Shown one piece after another: positions 1 to 11,380 of a stretch of 11,380 nucleotides of DNA. Made by a program: the position numbers and the translations under genes. This DNA is from Escherichia coli (lineage in GTDB: Bacteria > Pseudomonadota > Gammaproteobacteria > Enterobacterales > Enterobacteriaceae). How positions within the stretch are numbered: position 1 is the stretch's first letter; each line of letters begins with the position of its first letter. The notes beneath the pieces are model-generated. The model was not told the DNA's origin, searched no databases, and saw only the letters and a list, made by a program, of their open reading frames with translations. The stretch is taken from NCBI RefSeq assembly GCF_003334255.1, contig NZ_QOWU01000083.1. One strand, given 5' to 3'.

Positions 1-62
1 AATCGGTGGAGCTGCATGACAAAGTCATCGGGCATTATCTGAACATAAAACACTATCAATAA

Positions 63-575
63 GTTGGAGTCATTACCAAACAGGGATTATTTATTCTCTC
101 AGGCGAGAATAAAATAGACGAAGAATGTTTCATTAATATAGTCCAAACGGCTGTCGCCATAAATAACATCGGTAGAGAATCTAATGGTTATATTTTAGTT
201 GGTGTTTCCGATACCAAAGCTACGGCAGACAGAGTTAAGACTTTATATGGTGTTACCCCTATTGAGTGCAATGGCTATTATATCAATGGAATTGATCATG
301 AAGCTGTAATTCAATCAAAAAACATAGATAATTACTTTCTGTTCATAAAACAAAAAATAGAATCATTTAATTTTAATGAGGCTTTGAAACAACAAATACT
401 AAAAGATATTTCATTATGTTCATATGAAGGACTGCATGTTTTAAAAATCGAAATAAAAAGTGTCGGAGAAGTCTGTCATTTTGAAAATAGGTATTATATA
501 AGACAAGGAACAGCTACGCATTTAATCACTGACGGTGAAGCAATTAGTAGTTTACACAGATTATATTACTCATAA
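63..575 (+). CDS. Start-less ORF with Schlafen/AlbA_2-like domain signature (possible truncated or disrupted gene)
   Basis: Frame is open from 63 to the TAA at 573-575 (171 codons) in AT-rich DNA, where long open frames are unlikely by chance. Translation contains ...CFINIVQTAVAINNIGRESNGYILVGVSD... and ...GLHVLKIEIKSVGEVCHFENRYYIRQGTATHLI..., which resemble the AlbA_2/Schlafen-type motifs (CAFANtxGGxLxIGVxD; ...YIRxGxxT) from memory. No ATG/GTG in frame; first canonical start is TTG at 384; in-frame TAA at 60-62 and all three frames closed within the first 62 nt. Confidence 0.35.
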   Translation, partial: VGVITKQGLFILSGENKIDEECFINIVQTAVAINNIGRESNGYILVGVSDTKATADRVKTLYGVTPIECNGYYINGIDHEAVIQSKNIDNYFLFIKQKIESFNFNEALKQQILKDISLCSYEGLHVLKIEIKSVGEVCHFENRYYIRQGTATHLITDGEAISSLHRLYYS

Positions 576-1278
576 TTACTTAAGCACTATGAAGGTATCA
601 TACACCTTCATAGTGTACTTTTTTACTGCGCTTTGGGGCTAAATTGTTTTTGTGAATAGCCAGAATATCGTGGCTACGGCGGCAATGGAAATATATGATC
701 TCTGCTGCCAGAGACTGGAGATGTAATTGGGGGCAGTTTGGATATCGAAAATTATTGTACTATAAGGGGTCCGCTTGAGGGGGCCGCTTGGAAAACGGAA
801 ATTTTCCCACGCTAAGAGAATTGAGTTGAACGAGTGGTTACATCTAGGCCAGCTAACTCACTGAACGTAAAGGCTGTACGAAATGTTCCGACCGTCCGAT
901 AACCATTTGGCTTACTTCCGTACATTTCCTTGCGTAGATGTACAGAATTGTACGATTTCGGACACCAAAACTGCTGTTGTCCCGGTGCATGAAGCTACTT
1001 TCCGGGTTGGTGGTACTGACTTTGGTGTTCTTAACGACGACGTTTTCAACTCTGAAAATCGCCTCTCTGCACGGGGATTTTTACCCCCCCATAGAGCCGT
1101 CATATAAATTCAAATTATTAACTTTGATGGTAGAATTATCTTAGGTTTGATAAAATTTTGAGCCGTCGCCGTTTACTTCACAGGATTCAATATAATGGCT
1201 AAATATACAGTTTGTGATTACCAATAAACTATTAGAAATAATGGGAATGGTTGTGCCAATCTCTATCTGGAGGTCTTA

Positions 1279-1500
1279 TTGCAGGGAACATCCACCCCAT
1301 CGTTACACCAATACAGAATTGCCCCCGATACAAGACATCCAGACATTAACCTAATAAAAGCGCACCTTGACGAGGGCTTTCAGCAGGCAAAGTCTGAGGG
1401 ATTAAAAGTAGAGATTTCAGATTATAAAGAACGTCTTTACCTGTACATTAGAACACCTGGTAATAACCTAATGCAATATTCTGGTTGCAGAGAAAAATAA
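1279..1500 (+). CDS. Hypothetical small ORF (73 aa, TTG start); weak resemblance to integrase N-terminal arm-type segment; possibly a remnant
   Basis: ORF track only; TTG start, no convincing RBS. Segment ...SDYKERLYLYIRTPGN... loosely resembles the D-G-x-GLYLxVxPxGxK motif of P4-type integrase N-termini. Speculative. Confidence 0.2.
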   Translation: MQGTSTPSLHQYRIAPDTRHPDINLIKAHLDEGFQQAKSEGLKVEISDYKERLYLYIRTPGNNLMQYSGCREK

Positions 1501-1607
1501 TACAGTCGCGCTGGATACGCTGACATTGACGCAGTTATATGATTTTCTGGCGTTGGTCAGTAAACCAGCTGCAGCCAAAACGGTGTAGTCCCTGACACAG
1601 GCGCCGG

Positions 1608-1844
1608 TCATTCTGTTAACTCATCCACGTATGGGATGAACAGTTGTTTCAGTTTGAAACCAGGGATGTCAGACGGATTTTTGCTGGCGAGTACGAAATC
1701 CGTTACGAACTTAATGGCCAGACTATTTATGTATTGCGCCTGTGACACACACGAGAAAACAGGTAGATTGTGTGTGAGGGCAACTTTAACATAGCCTGCA
1801 GGTGTTAATTCAGGAGCATTGTTATCAGACCAAATATTTTTCAT
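1608..1844 (-). CDS. Hypothetical protein (78 aa)
   Basis: ATG-initiated ORF on the minus strand in AT-rich DNA; weak RBS; divergent from the 1873-2154 ORF. No recognisable family. Confidence 0.3.
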
Positions 1845-1872
1845 TCCATTAAATAGTCTTGTAGGGGATAAA

Positions 1873-2154
1873 ATGAATTACGATGAAATAACGAAAATCA
1901 CTGCAGAACGTATTAGCGACTACATGACTGAAGCGGTTAATACAGACTCTAAATCTGTTGCGGAAATGTTTCATAACGCTGCATGGGGAGTGCTATCATT
2001 GTGGTTTGAACTCGTCACAAAAATAGATCTGGATATACATAAAAAGAACAGGTATGCAAGTTATGATTTTAGAAGAAAAATCGAAATGCAGCATGAAGAG
2101 TTTCAGAAAATGACAGAGCGTGAGCAAGTGCCTTTATTGAAATTGCCTGAATAA
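1873..2154 (+). CDS. Hypothetical protein (93 aa from ATG 1873; ORF track gives a TTG start at 1819)
   Basis: ATG at 1873 preceded by AGGGGA (about 1863-1868) at reasonable spacing; ORF ends TAA 2152-2154; followed by a strong hairpin at 2220-2266. No recognisable family. Confidence 0.4.
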
Positions 2155-2219
2155 CAGAGACAGTGCAAACGATTATTTCATAATAACGATTATGTAATGA
2201 CTGGTAAGAAAATAACTTG

Positions 2220-2266
2220 ATTGAGTTCCCTTTATCCAGCCTGATAGTGGATAAAGGGAACTCAAT
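2220..2266. terminator. Perfect 18-19 bp inverted repeat hairpin between convergent genes; likely bidirectional intrinsic terminator
   Basis: TTGAGTTCCCTTTATCCA (2221-2238) / loop GCCTGATAG / TGGATAAAGGGAACTCAA (2248-2265), exact reverse complements. Flanked by A/T-rich sequence on both sides. Lies between the stop of the + ORF (2154) and the stop of parR (2277, minus). Confidence 0.55.
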
Positions 2267-2276
2267 AATAATTGAA

Positions 2277-2630
2277 TTAATTTATTAGCTTCATCGCATT
2301 TTTTTTGGTCTCTTCATCACTTTTTTGCTCTTGTTGTGAAGAGGATTGAGTGACTATTGAAGAATTAAAATCGGCCATCTCTTTTGGAAATAGCGATCTC
2401 AATATATTCACGATATCTGAAAATGTGGTTTCTTTCGTCAGCAGCTCACATAAAAGGAAAGGGGTCCGGGGATCTTGTCTGTATAAGGCCAGACCTGCCG
2501 TCAGTGCGGCCCGGTTAAGGCGGCTTCGTTCCCCTTGCGGGATACTGTCCAGTGTATCACAAACAATTTTATCTGTTTGATTTACATCTGGATTTAGTTT
2601 GAAGGCAATGGTTCTGCGCTTGTCCATCAT
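2277..2630 (-). CDS. parR: ParR (StbB) centromere-binding adaptor protein of type II (actin-like) partition system
   Basis: 117-aa translation [54 protein letters not shown]... matches my recollection of plasmid R1 ParR. Lies immediately downstream of parM with a TAATG stop/start overlap, the known parMR operon arrangement. Confidence 0.9.
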   Translation of the reverse strand: MMDKRRTIAFKLNPDVNQTDKIVCDTLDSIPQGERSRLNRAALTAGLALYRQDPRTPFLLCELLTKETTFSDIVNILRSLFPKEMADFNSSIVTQSSSQQEQKSDEETKKNAMKLIN

Positions 2631-3592
2631 TAATTACCTATGAGATACATACCGTTAACTAAATCATATTGAGAGTTATTGGTTTTGAAAAAACGTTCAT
2701 CACGAATCTGTGTGTGTTTTTTTACTGCATCGCATATTAATTCTGCGCCACCGCCTATAACCATAACATGAGTATAACCAGAAAATTCATTGAGCGTATT
2801 TAATACACGTTGCTCAAGTTTACGAAGTGCTTCATTCATTGCTTCGGTGACTATTGATATTTTGTTCTCATCATTAATTCGTTGCTTCAGATAGTTATTA
2901 TCTTTTCTGTGAATGATTATATCGTCAGCAAGATAGCTACTTCCTTTTGTTCTCGCAAGAGAAAGGGCATCTTTTACTGCAGATGTAACCAGAGAGACAC
3001 CAAGAGATGAGTCTCCGTATATTTTACTGATCCCCGATAATTTCCCCATTACCTGAGAAATATCTAATGTGGTGCCCCCGAGATCTATAATTAATAAAGA
3101 ATCTAACTCATCCAGTTCTTGTAGAACTTCATAACCTGCCGGTATAGATTCAGGCATGACTTTTACATCTTTTATTGTGAATGTATCCCCGCCATTTAAT
3201 GTAATTTTTTTCCGGAAGTTTGCTTTCTTACGCTCAATATTTTCCGTATTGGGTTGGTTATTTCTGTCGTAATACTCTGTCAGAGGAAGTGTGCAAACAA
3301 TATCCACTTCGCTTACCGGCAGACCACTGGTCAGTAAGGCGTGATGCACTGCAACGACATTAACGTCGCTGTATTGCCATGCGATATTGGTTGTGACTAC
3401 AGCATCCGGGCTGATTGGATCAAATGAATACTGTTCGCCGTTCAGTGTGTAGTTAAAGACCTTTTTATCACCAAAAGAGACTGCCCACTCGCGTTTGAAG
3501 CTGTTCGGGCTAATGTGCTGTTTAATTGTTCCGTCGCTTTCCTGCCACTGTAGTTTGATGTTTGTTGAACCGTCATCAATGAATACCAACAT
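2630..3592 (-). CDS. parM: ParM (StbA) actin-like plasmid segregation ATPase
   Basis: 320-aa translation [22 protein letters not shown]...[14 protein letters not shown]...[11 protein letters not shown]... carries actin-fold phosphate-binding motifs (DDGSTN, DLGGTT, GGGA) and matches R1 ParM as I recall it. RBS AAGGAG lies upstream of the ATG at 3590-3592. Confidence 0.95.
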
Positions 3593-3607
3593 TTATAAAA
3601 CTCCTTA

Positions 3608-3772
3608 TGGTGTTTTTTTGGTGTGTGTTTGGGTATGTTTTGGGTTTTAAGTGGGTTTGTTTGTCAAGTTTACCCCATTTCAACCATCAATCAATGATTA
3701 TTTGTCTTGTTTTGGTGTTTTATTGGGTTGGGTATGGGTTGTTTTTGGGTTTTGTTTGGCGGGTAACAAAAG
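3608..3772 (-). promoter_or_regulatory. parC: parC centromere/promoter region: two blocks of about five 11-bp iterons flanking the parMR promoter
   Basis: 11-bp periodic T/G-rich repeats on the + strand (for example ttgggtatgtt, ttgggttttaa, gtgggtttgtt, then after a ~45-bp spacer ttgttttggtg, ttttattgggt, tgggtatgggt, tgtttttgggt, tttgtttggcg). The spacer, read on the minus strand, contains TTGATT-16 bp-TAAACT and TTGACA. Architecture matches established R1 parC (10 iterons around the promoter). Confidence 0.7.
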
Positions 3773-4108
3773 ATGTCGCCGGGCTCCTCTTTTTACTGCG
3801 CCGGCTGACGCGGCGCGGCAGGAACGCTGCCTGTGGTCAGTGTCCCGCGTCCGGCCGGGCACGGGACGGGCGCTTTTACCGCTCCCGGCTGGCGTTGGTG
3901 ACAGTGTACGCCAGCCCGTCGCCCTTTTCTGATGAACGCCCTTCAAGCCGCTTTCGCGGCATATCCTCGCCGTCAAAAAGACGACGGCTGCGGTATTCCA
4001 CGGTCGGCCTGACCCGTTACCGGACGCGGTGAACAGCCCACAGGCAGCGGGGAACGGGCACCACAGGGGTGCCCTCCCGGTGCCCTCTGTAAGAGAAGGA
4101 GTGCTGTT
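3773..4108 (+). promoter_or_regulatory. Long GC-rich untranslated leader upstream of the methyltransferase operon; candidate structured promoter/ssi-like element
   Basis: About 335 bp with no credible ORF (only overlapping R/P/G-rich frames on both strands). Shares the 13-mer TGAACAGCCCACA (4030-4042) with 8399-8411. Ends with RBS AAGGAG before ATG 4109. Confidence 0.3.
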
Positions 4109-4792
4109 ATGTCCCGTTTTATCCTGGGTGACTGCGTGCGTGTTATGGCCACGTTTCCGGGCAATGCTGTCGATTTCATCCTCACCGACCCGCCGTATCT
4201 CGTCGGTTTCCGTGACCGTTCCGGGCGCACCATCGCCGGCGATAAAACCGATGAATGGCTGCAACCAGCCTGTAATGAAATGTACCGCGTACTCAAAAAA
4301 GACGCGTTAATGGTGAGCTTCTATGGCTGGAACCGCGTCGATCGCTTTATGGCCGCCTGGAAAAATGCGGGATTCAGCGTTGTTGGTCACCTGGTCTTCA
4401 CCAAAAACTACACATCGAAGGCCGCATATGTGGGCTATCGCCACGAATGTGCCTACATCCTGGCAAAAGGCCGTCCACGTCTGCCACAAAACCCGCTGCC
4501 GGACGTGCTGGGCTGGAAATATTCGGGCAATCGCCATCACCCGACGGAAAAGCCCGTTACCAGCCTGCAACCGCTGATTGAGAGCTTCACACACCCGAAC
4601 GCAATTGTGCTGGACCCGTTTGCAGGCAGCGGCTCAACCTGCGTCGCCGCCCTCCAGTCCGGACGCCGGTATATCGGTATCGAGCTGCTTGAGCAGTATC
4701 ACCGTGCCGGGCAGCAACGCCTTGCCGCCGTGCAACGGGCCATGCAGCAGGGGGCCGCGAATGATGACTGGTTTATGCCGGAGGCTGCGTAA
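4109..4792 (+). CDS. Orphan DNA methyltransferase, N6-adenine/N4-cytosine beta class (PF01555-like)
   Basis: 227 aa. Motif IV DPPY near the N-terminus (LTDPPYLVG) and motif I near the C-terminus (VLDPFAGSGSTCVAA), the order typical of beta-class amino-methyltransferases. Good RBS AAGGAG before the ATG. No adjacent restriction endonuclease candidate. Confidence 0.85.
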   Translation: MSRFILGDCVRVMATFPGNAVDFILTDPPYLVGFRDRSGRTIAGDKTDEWLQPACNEMYRVLKKDALMVSFYGWNRVDRFMAAWKNAGFSVVGHLVFTKNYTSKAAYVGYRHECAYILAKGRPRLPQNPLPDVLGWKYSGNRHHPTEKPVTSLQPLIESFTHPNAIVLDPFAGSGSTCVAALQSGRRYIGIELLEQYHRAGQQRLAAVQRAMQQGAANDDWFMPEAA

Positions 4793-5014
4793 ATGAACTA
4801 TGCAGGACACGAAAAACTGCGCGCCGAAGTGGCGGAGGTGGCCAATGCCATGTGCGACCTGCGTACAACCATGAATGAGATGGAGCAGCGGTACAGCTTT
4901 AATGCCGACACCCTGCCGGAACGTCTGGTGCGTCAGACGCTGTTTCGCGCAAACCGCCTCCTGATGGAGGCATATACCGAAATTCTGGAACTGGAAGCGT
5001 GCTTTAAAGATTGA
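4793..5014 (+). CDS. Hypothetical protein (73 aa), translationally coupled to the methyltransferase
   Basis: ATG immediately follows the methyltransferase TAA (TAAATG); GGAGG lies about 10 nt upstream; GC-rich codon usage consistent with neighbours. No recognisable family. Confidence 0.55.
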   Translation: MNYAGHEKLRAEVAEVANAMCDLRTTMNEMEQRYSFNADTLPERLVRQTLFRANRLLMEAYTEILELEACFKD

Positions 5015-5027
5015 GAAGGAGACGAGA

Positions 5028-5462
5028 ATGTACGGAACATGCGAAACGCTATGCCGGGAGCTGGCAGTAAAGTATCCGGGAGACATGCCGCTGATGCTGG
5101 TTATCTGGTCCCCGGAAGAGATTCAGGCACTGGCTGACGGTATGGAAATTTCTCTGACCGGTCATGAAATCAGGACCGTCCTGGCACGCCTGGAGGACAT
5201 CCCGGAAGACCAGCGGATTGAGTCCGGTATTTCTTCCGCTGCGGTGATGGAGATTATCCGCAACGAGAGCGAAAACCGCCTGGTGACCGTCCCTGCTGAA
5301 CTGCTGGCGTCCCTGATTCAGACCGCTGAACAGGCATTGTGGAAACGTGAATGGGCCGCCCGGGATCATGGCCTCGCCGTCCCGGAATGCGTCACCCGCC
5401 GTCAGGAGGTGGTTAATCAGGCCCGCACCCTGCTGAAAAACAACACACACGAAAACGACTGA
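5028..5462 (+). CDS. Conserved plasmid protein of unknown function (144 aa; possibly DUF1380-like), paralog of 7179-7601
   Basis: RBS GAAGGAGACGAGAATG. Aligns by eye with the 7179-7601 product (MY.T...RE...SLT..E..TV..RL.D...RxVTVPA..L). The DUF name is recalled, not verified. Confidence 0.6.
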
Positions 5463-6289
5463 TGTTATCGCCGCCTGCCCTGCGGGCGGCGATACAGGGA
5501 GAACGCTTAATCATGAACGAAAACAGCACGCTGAACGCACTGATTTGTCGTCACGCCCGCAACCTGCTGCTGGCGCAGGGCTGGCCGGAAGAGACGGATG
5601 TTGACCAGCGTAACCCGAAGTATCCGGGCTGGATCAGCATTTATGTTCTGCTGGATGCGCCCCGGCTGGCGACGTTACTTATCAACCGTCACGGCGGCGT
5701 ACTGCCGCCGCTCCTGGCCTCCGCCATTCAGAAACTGACCGGAACCGGGGCGGAACTGGTACTGTCCGGCAGTCAGTGGCAGTCGCTGCCGGTACTTCCG
5801 GCAGACGGAACGCAGGTGTCTTTCCCGTATGCCGGAGAATGGCTGACCGAAGACGAAATCAGGGCTGTACTTGCGGCGGTGCGCGATGCGGTACGCAGTG
5901 TCAGTTGCCGGGTGGCAGAAGATGCGCGGCGTATCCGGGCGGCGCTGACCACCACCGGTCAGACGTTGCTGACTCGCCAGACGCGCCGCTTTCGTCTGGT
6001 TGTGAAGGAAAGCGATCACCCCTGCTGGCTCGATGAAGATGACGAAAACCTGCCCGTGGTGCTCGATGCCATCGTGAACCGGGGAGCACGTTTTTCGTCG
6101 GTGGAAATGTACCTGGTCAGCGATTGTATTGAGCATATCCTGTCCAGTGGGCTGGCCTGCGATGTGCTGCGTATACCGGATGAACCGCCCCGCCGCTGGT
6201 TTGACCGTGGTGTTCTGCGGGAGGTGGTCCGGGAAGCCCGGGCCGAAATCCGCAGCATGGCGGATGCCCTGGCAAAAATCCGGAAATGA
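5462..6289 (+). CDS. Hypothetical protein (275 aa; alternative start ATG 5513 giving 258 aa)
   Basis: ATG 5462 overlaps the upstream stop (TGATG). An internal ATG at 5513 has its own RBS (AGGGAGA). Long GC-rich ORF co-oriented with neighbours. No recognisable motif. Confidence 0.6.
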
Positions 6290-6706
6290 TGACGTTGGCG
6301 GGGTAAATCCCCGCCTTTTTCCTGCCGGTCCCCGGACAGAGCACAAAGGAAGTCGCCGCCGGCTCCGCTTTACCCGGCCATGCAGGGCATGGCCTTGTGG
6401 TTTTTCAGTTATGTGGCCTCAGCGTCGTGTGCGGGCTGTGCCGTGCCTCCATCTTAGCCGGGCTGGCAGGGATGCAAGGGTACGCTTCGCCGCTGCGGTC
6501 ACCCGGTCCCTCCTTCCCGTCTGCCGTGATTTTCCGGTCGTTCACCCGCTCAGATTTCGCGGTCTCACCCTCCAACTCCCGCCAGCCGTGTGCGTCAGGC
6601 TGCGGCTTCCCTTGCGCCCTGTGCATCCCCGCCTTATCGCCCGGCTTTTATGGAGGCACGGCACCGCCCGGTGTCGCGGAATATGTGAACAACGGAGGAA
6701 AACATC
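6290..6706 (+). promoter_or_regulatory. GC-rich about 415-bp untranslated region upstream of klcA; candidate structured promoter/ssi-like element
   Basis: No credible ORF (the 6129-6734 and 6397-6741 frames are R/C/W/P-rich and overlap). Ends with TGAACAACGGAGGAAAACATCATG (RBS GGAGGA before klcA ATG 6707). Confidence 0.3.
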
Positions 6707-7132
6707 ATGCAATATGCGAAACCTGTCACTCTGAACGTTGAAGAGTGCGACCGTCTCTCCTTTCTACCGTATCTGTTTGGCAACGATTTTCTGTATGCCG
6801 AGGCGTATGTGTACGCGCTGGCGCAAAAAATGATGCCGGAATATCAGGGAGGCTTCTGGCACTTCATCCGCCTGCCGGACGGTGGCGGTTACATGATGCC
6901 GGATGGCGACCGTTTCCACATGGTGAACGGTGCAAACTGGTTTGACCGTACCGTGAGTGCTGATGCCGCAGGCATCATTCTGACTTCCCTTGTGATTAAC
7001 CGCCAGTTGTGGCTGTACCACGACAGCGGGGATGCAGGACTGACCCAGCTTTACCGGATGCGCGATGCGCAGTTGTGGCGTCACATCGAATTTCACCCCG
7101 AATGCAACGCGATTTACGCGGCACTGGACTGA
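6707..7132 (+). CDS. klcA: KlcA/ArdB-family antirestriction protein
   Basis: 141 aa; ...[68 protein letters not shown]... matches my recollection of KlcA/ArdB (Antirestrict family) proteins on IncF/IncP/IncN plasmids. RBS GGAGGA 7 nt upstream. Confidence 0.85.
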
Positions 7133-7141
7133 TTAACGGAC

Positions 7142-7160
7142 GGGGCGGCAATGCCGCCCC
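7142..7160. other. Intercistronic GC hairpin (GGGGCGGC-AAT-GCCGCCCC) directly upstream of an RBS
   Basis: Perfect 8-bp GC stem with 3-nt loop, 10 nt after the klcA stop and immediately before AAAGGAGACGAGAACATG. No downstream T-run, so not a canonical intrinsic terminator. Confidence 0.5.
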
Positions 7161-7178
7161 TGTAAAGGAGACGAGAAC

Positions 7179-7601
7179 ATGTACTGTACTGTTAAAGAAA
7201 TTATCCGCGAAGTGCTGAACACAGACGTGCCGGACAGTGAATGCGTTTTTGCCGTGGTGCTGACCCGTGGGGATGTGCGTCACATAGCCCAGGACTGGAG
7301 TCTGACAGACGATGAGCTGGAAACCGTCATGCAGCGACTGGACGATGCCTTTGCGCATGGTGCGGATGTCAGCATTGTTCACGACGTTGTTCGTGAGCTG
7401 ATGGAAGAAAAGCGCGCCAGCCGTCAGGTGACAGTTCCGGCGGTGATGCTGGAAAAAGTGATGGCGCTGGCAGGCAGTGAAATGAAGCGCCTGTATGCCG
7501 TCGGGAGCGAGAACGGGGGCGACGGTGACGCATTCGTCAGGGAAGAACGCGAAGCAATGGACGTTGTGTTACAGGCGCTGGACGGGGAGCACATGTCATG
7601 A
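7179..7601 (+). CDS. Conserved plasmid protein of unknown function (140 aa; possibly DUF1380-like), paralog of 5028-5462
   Basis: RBS AAAGGAGACGAGAACATG nearly identical to that of 5028. Sequence similarity to the 5028 product along the whole length, including the shared VTVPA motif. Confidence 0.6.
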   Translation: MYCTVKEIIREVLNTDVPDSECVFAVVLTRGDVRHIAQDWSLTDDELETVMQRLDDAFAHGADVSIVHDVVRELMEEKRASRQVTVPAVMLEKVMALAGSEMKRLYAVGSENGGDGDAFVREEREAMDVVLQALDGEHMS

Positions 7602-7789
7602 ATATCAGCACAGAAACCCGCGAAATTCTGCGCAATTACAAAGCCGTGATTAATGCGCGGCGTCGTGAAATGGGGCAGAAACCGCTCACCACTGCGCAGA
7701 TTGTTGATGAAATCTGCGATTTTGTGGCGAATCAGCAGGCTGTATTCCTCGGCGGTCACTACATCCTTCAGGGCAGCATAAACAGGTGA
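7598..7789 (+). CDS. Hypothetical small protein (63 aa), translationally coupled (ATGA overlap)
   Basis: ATG 7598 overlaps the TGA of the upstream gene; co-oriented; no recognisable family. Confidence 0.45.
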   Translation: MNISTETREILRNYKAVINARRREMGQKPLTTAQIVDEICDFVANQQAVFLGGHYILQGSINR

Positions 7790-7957
7790 TACAGGGGCAG
7801 GCGGTGGAGGCCGCCTGTCAGCCCGCGCGAAAACCCCTGGCAGGCTGACGCCTGCCGGAAGGGAAGCGGGCCACGCTGGCGCGTCGCCCGTTACCCTTCC
7901 CGTCTGTGATGTGTCTGACTCAGGAGTGTTTCTTTCTTATGTTATGGAACTGTTCCT

Positions 7958-8058
7958 GATGTTGTTGTTCCTTTATCTACTGCTCTGATTCTGACTACTG
8001 CAGTGTTGTTCTGTCTGCCGGGCGCACCTTCGGCTCCCGGCTGCCTGGCGGCATCCGG
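7958..8058. repeat. Copy 1 of a repeated leading-region element (77-bp core with 1 mismatch to copy 2)
   Basis: Core 7982-8058 (GCTCTGATTCTGACTACTGCAGTGTTGTTCTGTCTGCCGGGCGCACCTTCGGCTCCCGGCTGCCTGGCGGCATCCGG) matches 11304-11380 with a single T/C difference. The upstream GATGTTGTTGTTCC (7958-7971) is also shared with 11247-11260. Confidence 0.6.
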
Positions 8059-8409
8059 TCGTCAGGCCCGACTCCGACAGGCAGCTGCTGGCGCACCTGC
8101 CAGTCTCCGCCGAACCCGCTGGCGCGGTTTCGGGCTGCCGCTACGGTCCGATGCGTGAAAACCCCTGGCTTGCAGCGACCGTTCCGGTCGCGCCGCCTCT
8201 GTCGCGCCGTGGCCTGCGCTCCCGGCATCCCGGCAAAAGGCCGCCGGGATGTAAGGGGCAACGCCGTTTCGCGCACGCGCTCTCCGTCGTTGCGGCGGGC
8301 CCCTGCTCATTGCCTGCCGGGTGCCACACACCCGTATGAGTCCCTGTCGCCGGGGGCTGATACAGCCACAACCTGCCGCACTGACTGTCCAGGGTAAATG
8401 AACAGCCCA

Positions 8410-8445
8410 CAAAATTTTTTACCCAAAACCCGGTAAAAAATTTTG
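8410..8445. repeat. Perfect 14-bp inverted repeat (CAAAATTTTTTACC / GGTAAAAAATTTTG) with 8-nt loop
   Basis: 8410-8423 and 8432-8445 are exact reverse complements; an AT-rich stem embedded in GC-rich DNA, immediately after the shared 13-mer TGAACAGCCCACA. Confidence 0.5.
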
Positions 8446-8729
8446 CGTTCTGCCCAGGACAGGTGCGTCAGGCCGTGGCAGTGATGCCCCTTGCGGCGAA
8501 GGTTCTCAAACGGGTGAAGTTCATACCACAGTGAATACAGCAGCAGGTTCCCGCGAAACGTCAAAACCGCGGCTCCCGAAACTCAACGGGTGATGTTCTT
8601 TAAAAATCAGGATTTATTTCAGGCTCCGGCAATACGCATTTATTTGTTCTGTCAGTCATCCGGCTGACAGGTAATGAGAACGCAGGAACAGAAGGAGGAA
8701 AACACCGGAAAGCGTCAGATGCAGATATG

Positions 8730-8753
8730 AAAAAAGCAGGTCAGGCACCTGCT
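8730..8753 (-). terminator. Terminator-like hairpin oriented for the minus strand (stem AGCAGGT/ACCTGCT, followed by T6 on the minus strand)
   Basis: On the + strand: AAAAAA-AGCAGGT-CAGGC-ACCTGCT. On the minus strand this is a 7-bp stem followed by TTTTTT. Located about 75 bp upstream of ATG 8827. Confidence 0.35.
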
Positions 8754-8826
8754 TAATCCACGCCGTAAGAATTGTGCGACCAATTTTGACGGCATTGTTA
8801 ACCAATTTGTCATAAGGAATCCATTT

Positions 8827-9057
8827 ATGACTGTAAGCATTGTTTCACCTTCCGCAGCGGCTGTAAAGCCCCGCCGTCATCCCCGTTTCAGACGCGAAGA
8901 CATCCCCACGCCGGAAATTGACCCCGTGTTGAAAGCCTTCGGGCGACACATAGCCCGGAGTTTTCACCGGGGGCGTGGTGTACACATCCCCGCCATGAAA
9001 AACACGGCTTTCGGGCAGGTGCTCCGCACACTCGAACTGAAACGCGCTTTTAACTGA
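8827..9057 (+). CDS. Hypothetical small basic protein (76 aa)
   Basis: ATG with AAGGA upstream; R/K/H-rich product; co-oriented and followed after 51 bp by the 453-aa gene. No recognisable family. Confidence 0.45.
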   Translation: MTVSIVSPSAAAVKPRRHPRFRREDIPTPEIDPVLKAFGRHIARSFHRGRGVHIPAMKNTAFGQVLRTLELKRAFN

Positions 9058-9065
9058 TGAGGTGA

Positions 9066-9085
9066 GCCGCCCCGCGAGGGGCGGC
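9066..9085. other. Intercistronic GC hairpin (GCCGCCCC-GCGA-GGGGCGGC) directly upstream of an RBS
   Basis: Same 8-bp stem sequence as the hairpin at 7142-7160; followed by AACAGACGGAAGGAGAACATTTTATG. Confidence 0.5.
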
Positions 9086-9108
9086 AACAGACGGAAGGAG
9101 AACATTTT

Positions 9109-10470
9109 ATGACATTAGCAGCAATCACCATGACCGCCCCGGAAGCCGCCAGCCCTGTGCAGATGTACCGCGCGACCTACTCACCGGATGACAACAAACT
9201 GCGCCTGTATGCCGTGTCACGTCTTGACCCGGAGACGTATAAAAAAGTGCATGATGCTGGTTTTCGCTGGGCACCAAAACAGGCGCTGTTTGTCGCGCCA
9301 GCCTGGACACCGGGCCGGGAAGACGTGCTCCTCTCACTTGCCGGAGAGATTGAGGATGAAGACAGCACGCTCGCTGAACGTCAGGAAGCACGGGCGGAGC
9401 GGTTTACCGGATACAGCGGAAAGCGGGCCAGTGAATCCGCACAGGCACTTGATGAAGTGGAAAGACTGGCCGCGATGATCCCGCCCGGTCAGCCCATTCT
9501 TGTGGGGCATCACAGCGAACGCCGCGCCCGTCGTGATGCGCAGCGTATTGAAAACGGCATGAAACGTGCCGTGATGCTCTTTGAACGTGCGGAATACTGG
9601 GAAGAGCGGGCGCGGTCGGCACTGCTTCACGCGAAGTATAAAGAACGTCCGGACGTTCGCTGGCGTCGTATCAAAAAAATCGAAGCTGATTTGCGCAAGG
9701 CTGAAAAGACCATCGCGCAGTCGCAGAAATATCTGACGATGTGGCGGGCTGAATCGCTGGATCTGAATATGGCAAAACTCATCAGCAGTCATGACCATAT
9801 CAGCGCCTGTTTCCCGCTGGATACGTATCCGCGCCCGGCAGAAAAAAGCCAGTATGAAGGGAGCCGGTCGTTATGGTCGGCCCTGGATGATGACATCATC
9901 ACCACGGAGCAGGCCCGCGAAATTGCGATCCGCTGTCATGAACGGCAGATTCAGCATCAGCAACGCTGGGTTAACCACTATCAGAACCGCCTGATCTATG
10001 AGCGTGCCATGCTGGACGAAAGCGGCGGCGTGGTTACCCGGACACAGGATTTTGAGCCGGGCGGACAGGTTTTCAGCCGGGGCGAGTGGCTGACCATCAT
10101 CCGCGTGAACAAAAGCAACGGGGCGGTGAGTTCAGTCACAACGCCGAATTACAGTTTTCTCGGGTACAGCGGCACGATGAAAGTGACGCCCGATCGCATC
10201 ACGGACTACAAAGCACCATCGGCAGAAGAGGCTGCCATCGCCAGCCAGGCCGCGAAGCGTCCGCCGGTAGTCAACTATCCGGGGGAAGGTTTCCGGGAAA
10301 TGACAAAGGCACAGTGGGCCGCCCTGCCCCGGGACTGTAAGGCCGTGCGCAGTGTGGCAGAAGCAGAAGACCACGGGGCATACCGCTACCGCCGCACAAT
10401 GGACAATAATTTCCGCCTGGTGAATGTGTATATCACCGACATGAAAATCACGGAAATCCCACAGAAATAA
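9109..10470 (+). CDS. Conserved plasmid protein of unknown function (453 aa; possibly the DUF3560 family, unverified)
   Basis: Strong RBS AAGGAGA; long ORF with GC-rich codon usage. Central region is highly charged (R/E/K-rich, probably helical). No catalytic motif recognised by eye. Confidence 0.7.
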   Translation: MTLAAITMTAPEAASPVQMYRATYSPDDNKLRLYAVSRLDPETYKKVHDAGFRWAPKQALFVAPAWTPGREDVLLSLAGEIEDEDSTLAERQEARAERFTGYSGKRASESAQALDEVERLAAMIPPGQPILVGHHSERRARRDAQRIENGMKRAVMLFERAEYWEERARSALLHAKYKERPDVRWRRIKKIEADLRKAEKTIAQSQKYLTMWRAESLDLNMAKLISSHDHISACFPLDTYPRPAEKSQYEGSRSLWSALDDDIITTEQAREIAIRCHERQIQHQQRWVNHYQNRLIYERAMLDESGGVVTRTQDFEPGGQVFSRGEWLTIIRVNKSNGAVSSVTTPNYSFLGYSGTMKVTPDRITDYKAPSAEEAAIASQAAKRPPVVNYPGEGFREMTKAQWAALPRDCKAVRSVAEAEDHGAYRYRRTMDNNFRLVNVYITDMKITEIPQK

Positions 10471-10475
10471 GGTAT

Positions 10476-10501
10476 ATCCCCCCGGGAAATCCCCGGGGGA
10501 T
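10476..10501. other. Intercistronic GC stem-loop (ATCCCCC...GGGGGAT) between the 453-aa gene and the downstream methyltransferase
   Basis: 10476-10482 ATCCCCC pairs with 10495-10501 GGGGGAT; the loop contains the palindrome CCCGGG. Followed by RBS GGAGA and ATG 10517. Confidence 0.45.
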
Positions 10502-10516
10502 GACGGAGATAATGAC

Positions 10517-11080
10517 ATGCACAGTCAGTTAAGAGAACGTATCCGGCTGATGCGCGCAAGGCTGGATAACGCCGCGCCGGTTGCTGAAATCCGGGCTGAA
10601 TCTCAGCTTTTTGTGACTCCTGCCCCGGTCTGTGATCGCCTGGTGACGCTGGCGGAAATCAGCAACCGTGATCACATTCTGGAACCCTCTGCCGGCACCG
10701 GGGCCATACTGCGGGCGATTCGGGATACCGCGCCGGAGGCCATGTGTGATGCGGTGGAGATTAACAGCGGGCTGGTCCGGTATCTGCGGGAAAATTTTAA
10801 CGGTGTCAGGGTACAGTGTGGCGACTTCATGGAATGGCAGCCGGTGCAGTATTACAGCCGGATCATTATGAATCCGCCGTTCAGTCACGGGCAGGATATC
10901 CGGCATATCCTGCGGGCTTTTTCCCTGTTGCGTCCGGGGGGCGTGCTGGTTGCCGTCTGTCTCAACGGGCCGCGCCAGCAGGAGAAGCTGTTACCGTTTT
11001 CTGACGTCCGCGAGGAGCTGCCGCGCGGCACGTTTGCTTATACCGATGTCCCGACGATGATTATTCGTTTGCGTGCCTGA
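10517..11080 (+). CDS. Small class I SAM-dependent methyltransferase with amino-methyltransferase NPPF motif (putative orphan DNA or RNA methyltransferase)
   Basis: 187 aa. Motif I-like LEPSAGTGAIL followed about 55 residues later by IMNPPFS (the (D/N)PP(F/Y) motif IV), i.e. a gamma-like order. Too short for a separate target-recognition domain. RBS GGAGA 7 nt upstream. Confidence 0.75.
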   Translation: MHSQLRERIRLMRARLDNAAPVAEIRAESQLFVTPAPVCDRLVTLAEISNRDHILEPSAGTGAILRAIRDTAPEAMCDAVEINSGLVRYLRENFNGVRVQCGDFMEWQPVQYYSRIIMNPPFSHGQDIRHILRAFSLLRPGGVLVAVCLNGPRQQEKLLPFSDVREELPRGTFAYTDVPTMIIRLRA

Positions 11081-11246
11081 TGACACAGGGCTGGCGGGAG
11101 GATAAATGCCCGTCTGTCCGCACCGGGAAAAGACCGCGCGCCGGTGGCGCTGAAAGGGGCCGCGCTCACGCGCCGCCCCTTTCATTACGCGGACGTTCTG
11201 ATGGGGGCTTCTGTCTTTTCAGACCTGTCATTTGTCTGTTACTGAT

Positions 11247-11380
11247 GATGTTGTTGTTCCTGCTACTGCTACTGCTACTGCTACTGCTCTTCTTTTTCCT
11301 GCCGCTCTGATTCTGACTACTGCAGTGTTGTCCTGTCTGCCGGGCGCACCTTCGGCTCCCGGCTGCCTGGCGGCATCCGG
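11247..11380. repeat. Copy 2 of the repeated leading-region element, truncated by the window end; contains a (TGCTAC)4-5 microsatellite insertion relative to copy 1
   Basis: 11304-11380 matches 7982-8058 (76/77). Between the shared GATGTTGTTGTTCC and the core there are tandem hexamers TGCTAC x4 plus TGCTC (11261-11289) that are absent from copy 1. Confidence 0.6.

Follow-up and report, generated by a model that had tools for sequence, protein, structure and literature searches.

The 11,380-bp stretch of Escherichia coli DNA analysed here (contig NZ_QOWU01000083.1; hereafter the window) carries the parMR partition genes between two flanks, and the change in base composition along it raises the question of how many modules are joined in it, and where. 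The original prediction, made by reading the sequence, described three, with a left block rich in AT, a parMR of intermediate composition and a GC-rich island, and placed their joints at about 2270 and about 3772. We found that the whole window is identical to positions 41355–52734 of plasmid R1 (NZ_KY749247.1; 100% identity, megablast against a plasmid collection), and at least 5000 records of IncF-type and other enterobacterial plasmids match it in part. It is thus a segment of the IncFII plasmid R1, with the right-hand IS1 of the resistance determinant at one end, the distal half of the conjugative leading region at the other and the partition cassette parMRC in between. We consider it highly likely that it holds a single compositional boundary, at 3766–3774, between an AT-rich maintenance segment and the leading region, and that it is an ordinary modular mosaic.

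In the R1 annotation the end of IS1 is followed by ~1.8 kb in which no gene is listed, then by a small hypothetical gene, by parR and parM (both minus strand) and by a run of plus-strand genes: a DNA methylase, a DUF1380 gene, an antirestriction protein, a second DUF1380 gene, a DUF3560 gene and an S-adenosylmethionine (SAM)-dependent methyltransferase. This run extends past the window in R1 into ssb, psiB, hok, traM and the tra operon, and every annotated gene from 4109 to psiB and hok lies on the plus strand, with traM and the tra operon following. From this annotation, the right two thirds of the window are the distal conjugative leading region. The location between oriT and the maintenance genes and the common orientation of the genes towards oriT are those of an IncF/IncI leading region, and its characteristic genes are present as well, with anti-restriction and methylase genes in the window and ssb and psiB downstream in R1. 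The gene order is that of the R1/R100 (NR1) IncFII backbone, IS1–parR–parM–parC–methylase–klcA– and so on to ssb–psiB, with no differences. The window is identical to R1 throughout and 100% identical to R100 across the junction beside parC, and the backbone order of partition genes, leading region and tra in R1 and R100 has already been published (PMC2797631).

A single GC step, beside parC

The GC content (as a fraction of bases) is 0.385 in 1–2270, 0.391 in 2271–3772 and 0.584 in 3773–11380, with a value of 0.388 for 1–3772 pooled. The maximum-likelihood change point is found at 3774, with a log-likelihood gain of 196 that was reached by none of 100 permutations, and 2271–3772 differs from 3773–5273 with a chi-square p of 1.3e-26. 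Over the 100 bp on each side of 3766 the GC content rises from 0.37 to 0.69. The expectation of an AT-rich left part and a GC-rich part from about 3773 is thus borne out by the computed profile, and the accompanying remark that the right part generates many overlapping open reading frames (ORFs) was correct: of the 64 ORFs that are 60 aa or longer, 54 have their start at 3607 or further right and the other 10 to its left.

The same profile contains no step at 2270. The whole blocks on its two sides do not differ (p = 0.72, chi-square), and neither do the 500 bp on each side (0.36 versus 0.39, p = 0.32). Finer segmentation divides the window into 1–625 (0.32), 626–3774 (0.40), 3775–4085 (0.68) and 4086 to the end (0.58), with no change point at 2270. 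With 0.385 on one side and 0.391 on the other, parMR is not intermediate in composition; it has the composition of the left block.

Comparison with the rest of R1 identifies the side that is unusual. The GC content is 0.529 for R1 overall, 0.515 for the tra region, 0.57 for the whole leading region and 0.38–0.39 for the left block plus parMRC; the right block lies ~5 points above the plasmid mean and the AT-rich block ~14 points below it. GC content at third codon positions (GC3) and the codon adaptation index (CAI) are 0.23–0.40 and 0.17–0.25 in the DUF262 gene fragment, the ORF at 1873, parR and parM, against 0.58–0.68 and 0.28–0.44 in the leading-region genes (save two 76-aa ORFs with a CAI of 0.20–0.22) and 0.55–0.67 and 0.28–0.49 in traA/B/C/D/I, repA, ssb and psiB of R1. 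The atypical composition by which genomic islands are recognized is therefore absent from the leading genes, and since their GC3 and CAI are like those of tra and rep, the right block resembles the remaining backbone, and it is the AT-rich segment that stands out. To call the right block a GC-rich island is accordingly misleading. The leading block also has a GC content of 0.58–0.59 in F, IncI-gamma and pO157-like plasmids, where it lies between flanks of 0.48–0.50, and this constancy across backbones means that the unusually large step in R1 is due to its AT-rich neighbour. The GC-richest parts of the block are non-coding hairpin elements (0.66 in 3767–4108, 0.64 in 6290–6706 and 0.66 in 7790–8300, versus 0.574 for coding DNA). 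GC contents at first and second codon positions (GC1 and GC2) shift together with GC3, so that codon selection alone is insufficient to explain the contrast.

Homology break points on both sides of parMRC

The GC step coincides with a break in homology: the junction spans 3766–3774, with the homology break point at 3766–3772 and the GC change point at 3774. A query across the junction (2900–4700) was searched and 60 rows were taken at even steps down the ranking. Eighteen of these span the junction fully and 39 hold only the right part, without parMRC; all 39 begin at query position 867 or 869, that is, at window position 3766 or 3768, ~3 bp beyond the last parC iteron. With a query weighted towards parM (3200–3860), each of the 20 sampled parM-containing rows crosses the junction. 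Together, the fixed onset of the right-only matches and the crossing of the junction by all parM-containing rows argue that parC and the DNA from 3768 meet in one old junction inherited by R1/R100-type plasmids, and more than 1500 independent plasmid records, R100 included, have this same junction.

Thousands of plasmids, F and IncI types among them, hold the right block without parMRC, and on this comparison the block evidently circulates independently of parMRC among other backbones. Direct alignment confirms the 3766/3768 onset in F (F128), in an IncI-gamma/K1 MOBP plasmid and in a pO157-like plasmid, with identities of 92–97% from 3766 rightward (F, IncI, pO157-like); the flank departs from F and IncI beyond ...GGCGACATC. 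To the left of the onset these three plasmids have a DUF1281 gene or its remnant, and beyond it sopAB, impCAB with a parM-like pair, or a group II intron. The place of parC in R1 is thus taken in F and IncI by a DUF1281 gene, followed by sopABC or impCAB/parM-like genes. Plasmid p5505-2 carries the 3768–4090 element twice (at 3865–4191 and 5176–5514), flanking a DUF1281 gene, and this longer two-copy form occurs in about 3 of the 18 full-length sampled matches. The R1 arrangement could have come from the p5505-2 form by recombination between the copies, with the loss of ~1.3 kb, or the reverse may have happened. Self-BLAST and inspection of the sequence found no direct or inverted repeats at 3766 or at 2190.

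The second break point lies on the other side of parMR. Using 1400–3100 as the query, matches to parMR only begin at 2190, 2222 or 2262, and matches to the left block only end at 2143–2168. The homology begins exactly at 2190 in three unrelated contexts: beside microcin B17 and acyltransferase genes in p5505-2, beside an HNH endonuclease gene in 99-3165 unnamed2, and beside a RelE/ParE pair in the Shigella dysenteriae plasmid pSd1-SC595. This shared start, together with the right end at 3766, delimits a transferable type II partition cassette, parMRC, at 2190–3766 (minus strand, GC 0.39). Judged from the spread of its neighbours, the edge at 2190 is evidently rearrangement-prone, and it shows no GC contrast.

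Within the cassette, parR (2277–2630, minus strand) encodes the 117-aa adaptor annotated as the partitioning/stability protein of R1, and parM (2630–3592, minus strand) the 320-aa actin-like ATPase annotated as ParM (WP_000959884.1); both are R1's own annotated proteins and form one operon. The centromere parC (3605–3763, minus strand) consists of two blocks of about five 11-bp T/G-rich iterons, at 3605–3658 and 3704–3763, around the parMR promoter region. It is recognizable as a family of direct repeats in an 11-bp register, in which 3605–3648 is self-similar to 3710–3753, and its architecture of ten iterons in a 5+5 arrangement matches the published description (PMC2797631). The locus thus has both attributes of R1-type parMRC, a ParM/ParR operon and two five-iteron groups upstream of parM. 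A perfect-stem hairpin formed by an inverted repeat at 2220–2266 (minus strand) lies inside the cassette, 10 nt beyond the stop codon of parR (RNA fold, −30.2 kcal/mol, z = −6.5), and is probably the parMR transcription terminator. A permissive Rfam scan of 560–2300 gave only chance miRNA-like matches on this parR hairpin.

Both places named in the original prediction are therefore true module boundaries by comparative data, and only one of them, at 3766–3774, is a compositional discontinuity. The boundary given as about 2270 was roughly right, ~80 bp from the actual edge, and the reasoning from a GC step that led to it fails. A mosaic of three compositional blocks, an AT-rich left, an intermediate parMR and a GC-rich island with GC breaks at ~2270 and ~3772, would fit the module boundary near parR (homology breaks at 2143–2262) and the strong hairpin at 2220–2266; the lack of any difference or change point across 2270 is against it, as is the GC3 of parM and parR (0.36–0.40), which is in the same range as that of the left-block genes (0.23–0.36). 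We regard three compositional blocks as extremely improbable, the proposal being refuted by the change-point segmentation and the chi-square test at 2270. It could also be argued that the step at parC has no biological meaning and is ordinary local heterogeneity or an assembly chimera, given that R1 has about a dozen steps of 0.18–0.26 on a 500-bp scale, of which the parC step ranks third. We give this virtually no credence: no permutation matched the observed likelihood gain, the identical junction recurs in the more than 1500 independent records mentioned above, and the GC step lies within 10 bp of the homology break point, and on these three grounds chance heterogeneity and chimerism are rejected. 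As a separate observation, the largest step on the 500-bp scale in the whole of R1 is the IS1 edge at window positions 33–77, which the original prediction overlooked.

The modules on either side of the junction

Three intergenic stretches of the leading region were folded as DNA on the minus strand, which is the transferred strand and the template of the genes, and all three are far more stable than shuffled sequences: 3764–4108 (−98.8 kcal/mol, z = −6.1), 6290–6706 (−106.9 kcal/mol, z = −5.5) and 8300–8826 (−109.1 kcal/mol, z = −6.9). Promoters that act on single-stranded DNA (ssDNA) have been mapped at ssb-type operons (class 1), klcA/ardA (class 2) and M.EcoGIX (class 3), with homologues noted in F (Wen et al.), and the hairpins of R1 may have the same role.

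The hairpin-forming element upstream of the methylase operon occupies 3768–4108 (minus strand, GC 0.66) and has a core stem at ~3825–4049. The stem-loop region 3764–4108 stops 1 nt before the methylase ATG at 4109, which is the position of a class 3 promoter. The element is 97% identical to F and 95.6% identical to an IncI-gamma plasmid at the same position, and six copies of it are almost invariant, with two compensatory pairs. It is probably an ssDNA promoter of class 3 of Wen et al. 2025. The element upstream of klcA/ardB (6290–6706, minus strand) has a stem at ~6435–6670 formed by an inverted repeat (6432–6480 and 6617–6670) and is 96% identical to F; by position it would correspond to the class 2 promoter, for which the name Frpo3 has been used at klcA/ardB (Shaw et al., bioRxiv 10.1101/2025.04.03.647016). 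Both assignments were made because of position and the 96–97% identity to F. Since the first element begins at 3768, the start of the GC-rich block coincides exactly with the promoter-type hairpin that is most distal in the leading region.

The annotated hypothetical protein WP_032146011.1 (3739–4032, plus strand) overlaps this first element. Its ORF starts inside parC, its GC1/2/3 values are flat (0.58/0.63/0.67) and its CAI of 0.15 is the lowest in the window; for these reasons we judge it to be probably a spurious call over a structured, promoter-type element. In its F and IncI homologues the N-terminus is different and overlaps the DUF1281 stop codon.

The third element is an Frpo-type (class 1) repeat at 7949–8595 (minus strand), with a hairpin at ~8332–8522. 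This ~650-bp repeat is present in three copies in R1 that are 91–92% identical: the one in the window, one at R1 52625–53270, which lies upstream of ssb, and one at R1 58042–58666. The start of the second copy is cut by the window end, where 11271–11380 (minus strand) is 88% identical to 7949–8058 and the repeat runs on to R1 53270. Positions 8160–8595 share 93% identity with the DNA immediately preceding ssb in F, the region defined as the single-stranded promoter Frpo2 (Couturier et al.), and they show both the Frpo1/Frpo2 homology and the long transferred-strand stem-loop of class 1 Frpo/ssi elements. Between this hairpin and the 76-aa ORF at 8827 lies an AT-rich patch (8601–8826, GC 0.43) inside the GC-rich block.

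The genes between these elements are all on the plus strand. The first operon (4109–6289; GC3 0.64–0.68) comprises a DNA methyltransferase (4109–4792), a 73-aa ORF (4793–5014), a DUF1380 gene (5028–5462) and a 258-aa ORF (5513–6289), the last three known from annotation. The methyltransferase is M.EcoGIX-like and belongs to the PRK13699 subfamily (NCBIfam NF010253, 2e-150); its F homologue has been described as an M.EcoGIX homologue (Wen et al.). An NCBIfam search of ten proteins returned this methylase family and a weak ParM-like match only, and a scan of the whole window at Rfam gathering thresholds matched no family. The anti-restriction operon (6707–7789) has three genes, encoding a KlcA/ArdB-family protein (6707–7132; Pfam PF03230 Antirestrict, 1.9e-26), an annotated DUF1380 protein (7179–7601) and an annotated 63-aa ORF (7598–7789). 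It is followed, behind the Frpo-type repeat, by a further operon (8827–11310) with a 76-aa ORF, a DUF3560 gene (9109–10470), a gene for a class I SAM-dependent methyltransferase of 187 aa (10517–11080) and another 76-aa ORF, all identified by annotation and the methyltransferase also by PADLOC methyltransferase models. Among the latter, 10517–11080 matches mad2 (1.3e-20) and several type II/orphan methyltransferase models, and it is a second leading-region methylase beside 4109–4792.

The leading regions of F and of IncI1/IncI-gamma plasmids (ColIb-P9, pESBL) have the same methylase, DUF1380 and KlcA/ArdB genes and the same hairpin elements, and the conservation of the leading region between IncF and IncI has already been described (Wen et al.). 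Relative to F, R1 has the extra Frpo-headed operon with its DUF3560 and SAM methyltransferase genes; in F the 63-aa ORF is followed directly by ssb. Because 8827–11310 is bracketed by the first two Frpo-type repeats and is missing in F, it looks like a cassette of promoter plus genes that has been added or removed through recombination of these repeats.

On the other side of the junction, the left block begins with the right end of IS1 (1–77), whose terminal inverted repeat ...TAAGTTGGAGTCATTACC belongs to the last IS1 of the R1 resistance determinant. The element is annotated as IS1B transposase in R1 and its end motif is at R1 41414–41431, equivalent to window 60–77. Adjacent to it, 78–575 (plus strand, GC 0.31) is a 3' fragment of 165 codons of a gene for a 590-aa GmrSD_N (DUF262) and Schlafen/AlbA_2 protein. 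Positions 78–86 (AAACAGGGA) are one copy of a 9-bp target duplication, the other copy of which lies to the left of the first IS1, at R1 5424–5432. Removal of R1 5433–41431 and one repeat copy restores an open frame of 590 codons, so that 78–575 is the 3' third of a gene into which the 36-kb IS1-flanked determinant has been inserted; the rest of the gene, with the first copy of the duplication, is at R1 4149–5432. The hallmarks of insertion of an IS1 composite element, a 9-bp duplication and a target gene restored on excision, are thus both present. They agree with the known resistance determinant of R1/R100, which has IS1 in direct orientation at both ends and the 9-bp duplication AAACAGGGA, and of which the window holds the last 77 bp only. 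The restored protein has an N-terminal GmrSD_N/DUF262 domain (Pfam 2e-19) and a C-terminal SLFN_AlbA_2 domain (Pfam 3e-5) and resembles the defence proteins NsnA (PADLOC 9e-22) and PD-T4-2_A; an intact 590-aa gene is found in p14EC033f, beside pemIK. The AT-rich domain resumes across the IS1 insertion, with a GC content of 0.347 in R1 4001–5000.

Positions 576–1872 (GC 0.42) are non-coding or decayed DNA. They include a RelE/ParE-family toxin pseudogene (~1511–1745, plus strand) that the Prokaryotic Genome Annotation Pipeline (PGAP) labels 'frameshifted; internal stop' in an identical plasmid, and of which many other plasmids have intact versions at ~92% identity, one of them the immediate neighbour of parR. 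In 576–1530, BLAST against fetched loci and six-frame translation revealed no identifiable gene remnant. An unannotated segment of ~200 bp at 778–984 recurs at 93–99% identity in many plasmids and has no Rfam match; in one IncI-gamma plasmid it lies ~190 bp upstream of a RelE/ParE–helix-turn-helix (HTH) pair. A piece of ~40 bp (724–768) is found in Citrobacter, Serratia and pO157-type plasmids. The block ends with the annotated gene for the hypothetical 93-aa protein WP_001333089.1 (1873–2154, plus strand, GC3 0.36), which matched no family in NCBIfam or PADLOC.

Source of the contrast and its meaning

Our explanation of the window as an ordinary modular mosaic places to the left of 3766–3774 a uniformly AT-rich stretch of maintenance backbone (~0.39), made up of the split DUF262/AlbA_2 gene, decayed toxin–antitoxin DNA, a small ORF and parMRC. 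To the right of 3774 lies the leading region (~0.58), a series of operon cassettes made up of anti-restriction, methylase and DUF genes in one orientation, with a large transferred-strand hairpin of ssDNA-promoter type ahead of every cassette. The F, IncI and pO157-like backbones share the leading block and have a DUF1281 gene or sopABC in the place of parMRC, and this sharing of a block next to different DNA points to ordinary modular plasmid construction. The data show the step, the break points and what the modules are, while the ssDNA-promoter role of the hairpins in R1 and the reason for the GC difference between the blocks are inferred. The 'different evolutionary origin' of the blocks in the original prediction holds up as modular exchange, because the leading block is common to MOBF and MOBP plasmids; it is no more than a possible cause of the GC difference. 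The GC difference is likely to come from a leading region that holds at ~0.58 whichever backbone it is in, possibly through selection for stable ssDNA structure and codon adaptation, and from the atypical AT-richness of parMRC and the DNA next to it.

This explanation has to be weighed against two others for the contrast itself. If the right block were a foreign island, recently acquired from a donor of higher GC content and not yet ameliorated, its GC content of 0.58 would be expected to exceed both the R1 mean of 0.529 and the 0.48–0.50 of the F and IncI flanks, as it does, and its movement between MOBF and MOBP backbones would be natural. Its genes, however, equal R1 tra, rep, ssb and psiB in GC3 and CAI, the block is near-universal in enterobacterial IncF/IncI plasmids (at least 5000 records), and it is the AT-rich block that deviates about three times more from the plasmid mean. 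Nor does the border look like that of an island: the edge is a bare fusion to parC without integrase, tRNA or target duplication, and a search for border hallmarks gave no annotated integrase or recombinase from 3768 to the window end, no Rfam match and no repeat at 3766. We consider a foreign island very unlikely, and it was rejected because the composition matches R1 core genes and the border is without integration hallmarks. A mainly functional contrast deserves more weight and is possible, although we doubt that it is the principal explanation. The GC content of the leading region would then be kept by ssDNA structure and codon adaptation, and the AT-richness of parC/parMR by ParR binding, promoter function or silencing by nucleoid proteins. 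The non-coding hairpins are indeed the GC-richest DNA (0.64–0.66 versus 0.574 for coding DNA), all three folded stretches are more stable than their shuffles and the block holds 0.58 in different backbones, but in codon adaptation the leading genes of R1 do not surpass its tra genes, the shift of GC1 and GC2 with GC3 is unexplained by codon selection alone, and the AT-richness covers the whole left 3.7 kb, including decayed DNA without a partition role.

A comparison with published leading regions is relevant to this last explanation. Those of MOB-F and MOB-P plasmids were found to have higher GC content and CAI, in favour of a functional contrast, and GC-rich Frpo elements; the reasons for the GC-richness were called unclear, with secondary structure of the incoming strand and codon adaptation suggested (Shaw et al., bioRxiv 10.1101/2025.04.03.647016). 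In R1 the leading region is likewise GC-richer than the plasmid (0.57–0.58 versus 0.529) and its hairpins are the richest part. Unlike the published pattern, the R1 leading genes are not clearly more codon-adapted than tra by an approximate CAI, and the sharpness of the step in R1 owes more to the AT-rich neighbour than to the leading region.

Several points weigh against our interpretation. The break-point frequencies come from at most 60 evenly spaced rows of searches limited to 5000 records, so that rare parMRC contexts without the hairpin element could escape, and megablast misses parMRC relatives under ~85% identity. The probable promoter role of 3768–4108 in R1 is deduced from position, folding and homology to F and IncI. 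A simple promoter/terminator scan of 2100–4200 flagged neither a parMR promoter nor the 2220–2266 hairpin, and the latter is for this reason a putative terminator. The CAI values, with weights after the Sharp & Li table, are approximate.

In all R1/R100-type plasmids sampled, parC and the hairpin are fused directly, at most 5 bp apart. That this fusion has a function, and is not just a frozen accident, is conceivable but in our view very unlikely. If it had one, the hairpin could serve, for example, as a priming site or roadblock that times the conversion of parC to the double-stranded form, or it may insulate the parMR promoter from events in the leading region, and the GC step would be a functional border between DNA expressed single-stranded and DNA expressed as a duplex.

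The feature is real and ordinary, and already known in its parts, since GC-rich leading regions, ssDNA promoters and parMRC have all been described; R1 is a textbook plasmid, and the importance of the finding beyond bookkeeping is slight. What is gained is a set of corrections. There is one compositional boundary, not two, and the outlier is the AT-rich partition and maintenance segment. The ends of the parMRC cassette, 2190 and 3766, are precise and reusable, and the annotated ORF at 3739–4032 is probably spurious. Operationally, the exact junction could mark where the leading region of IncFII plasmids ends on its distal side.

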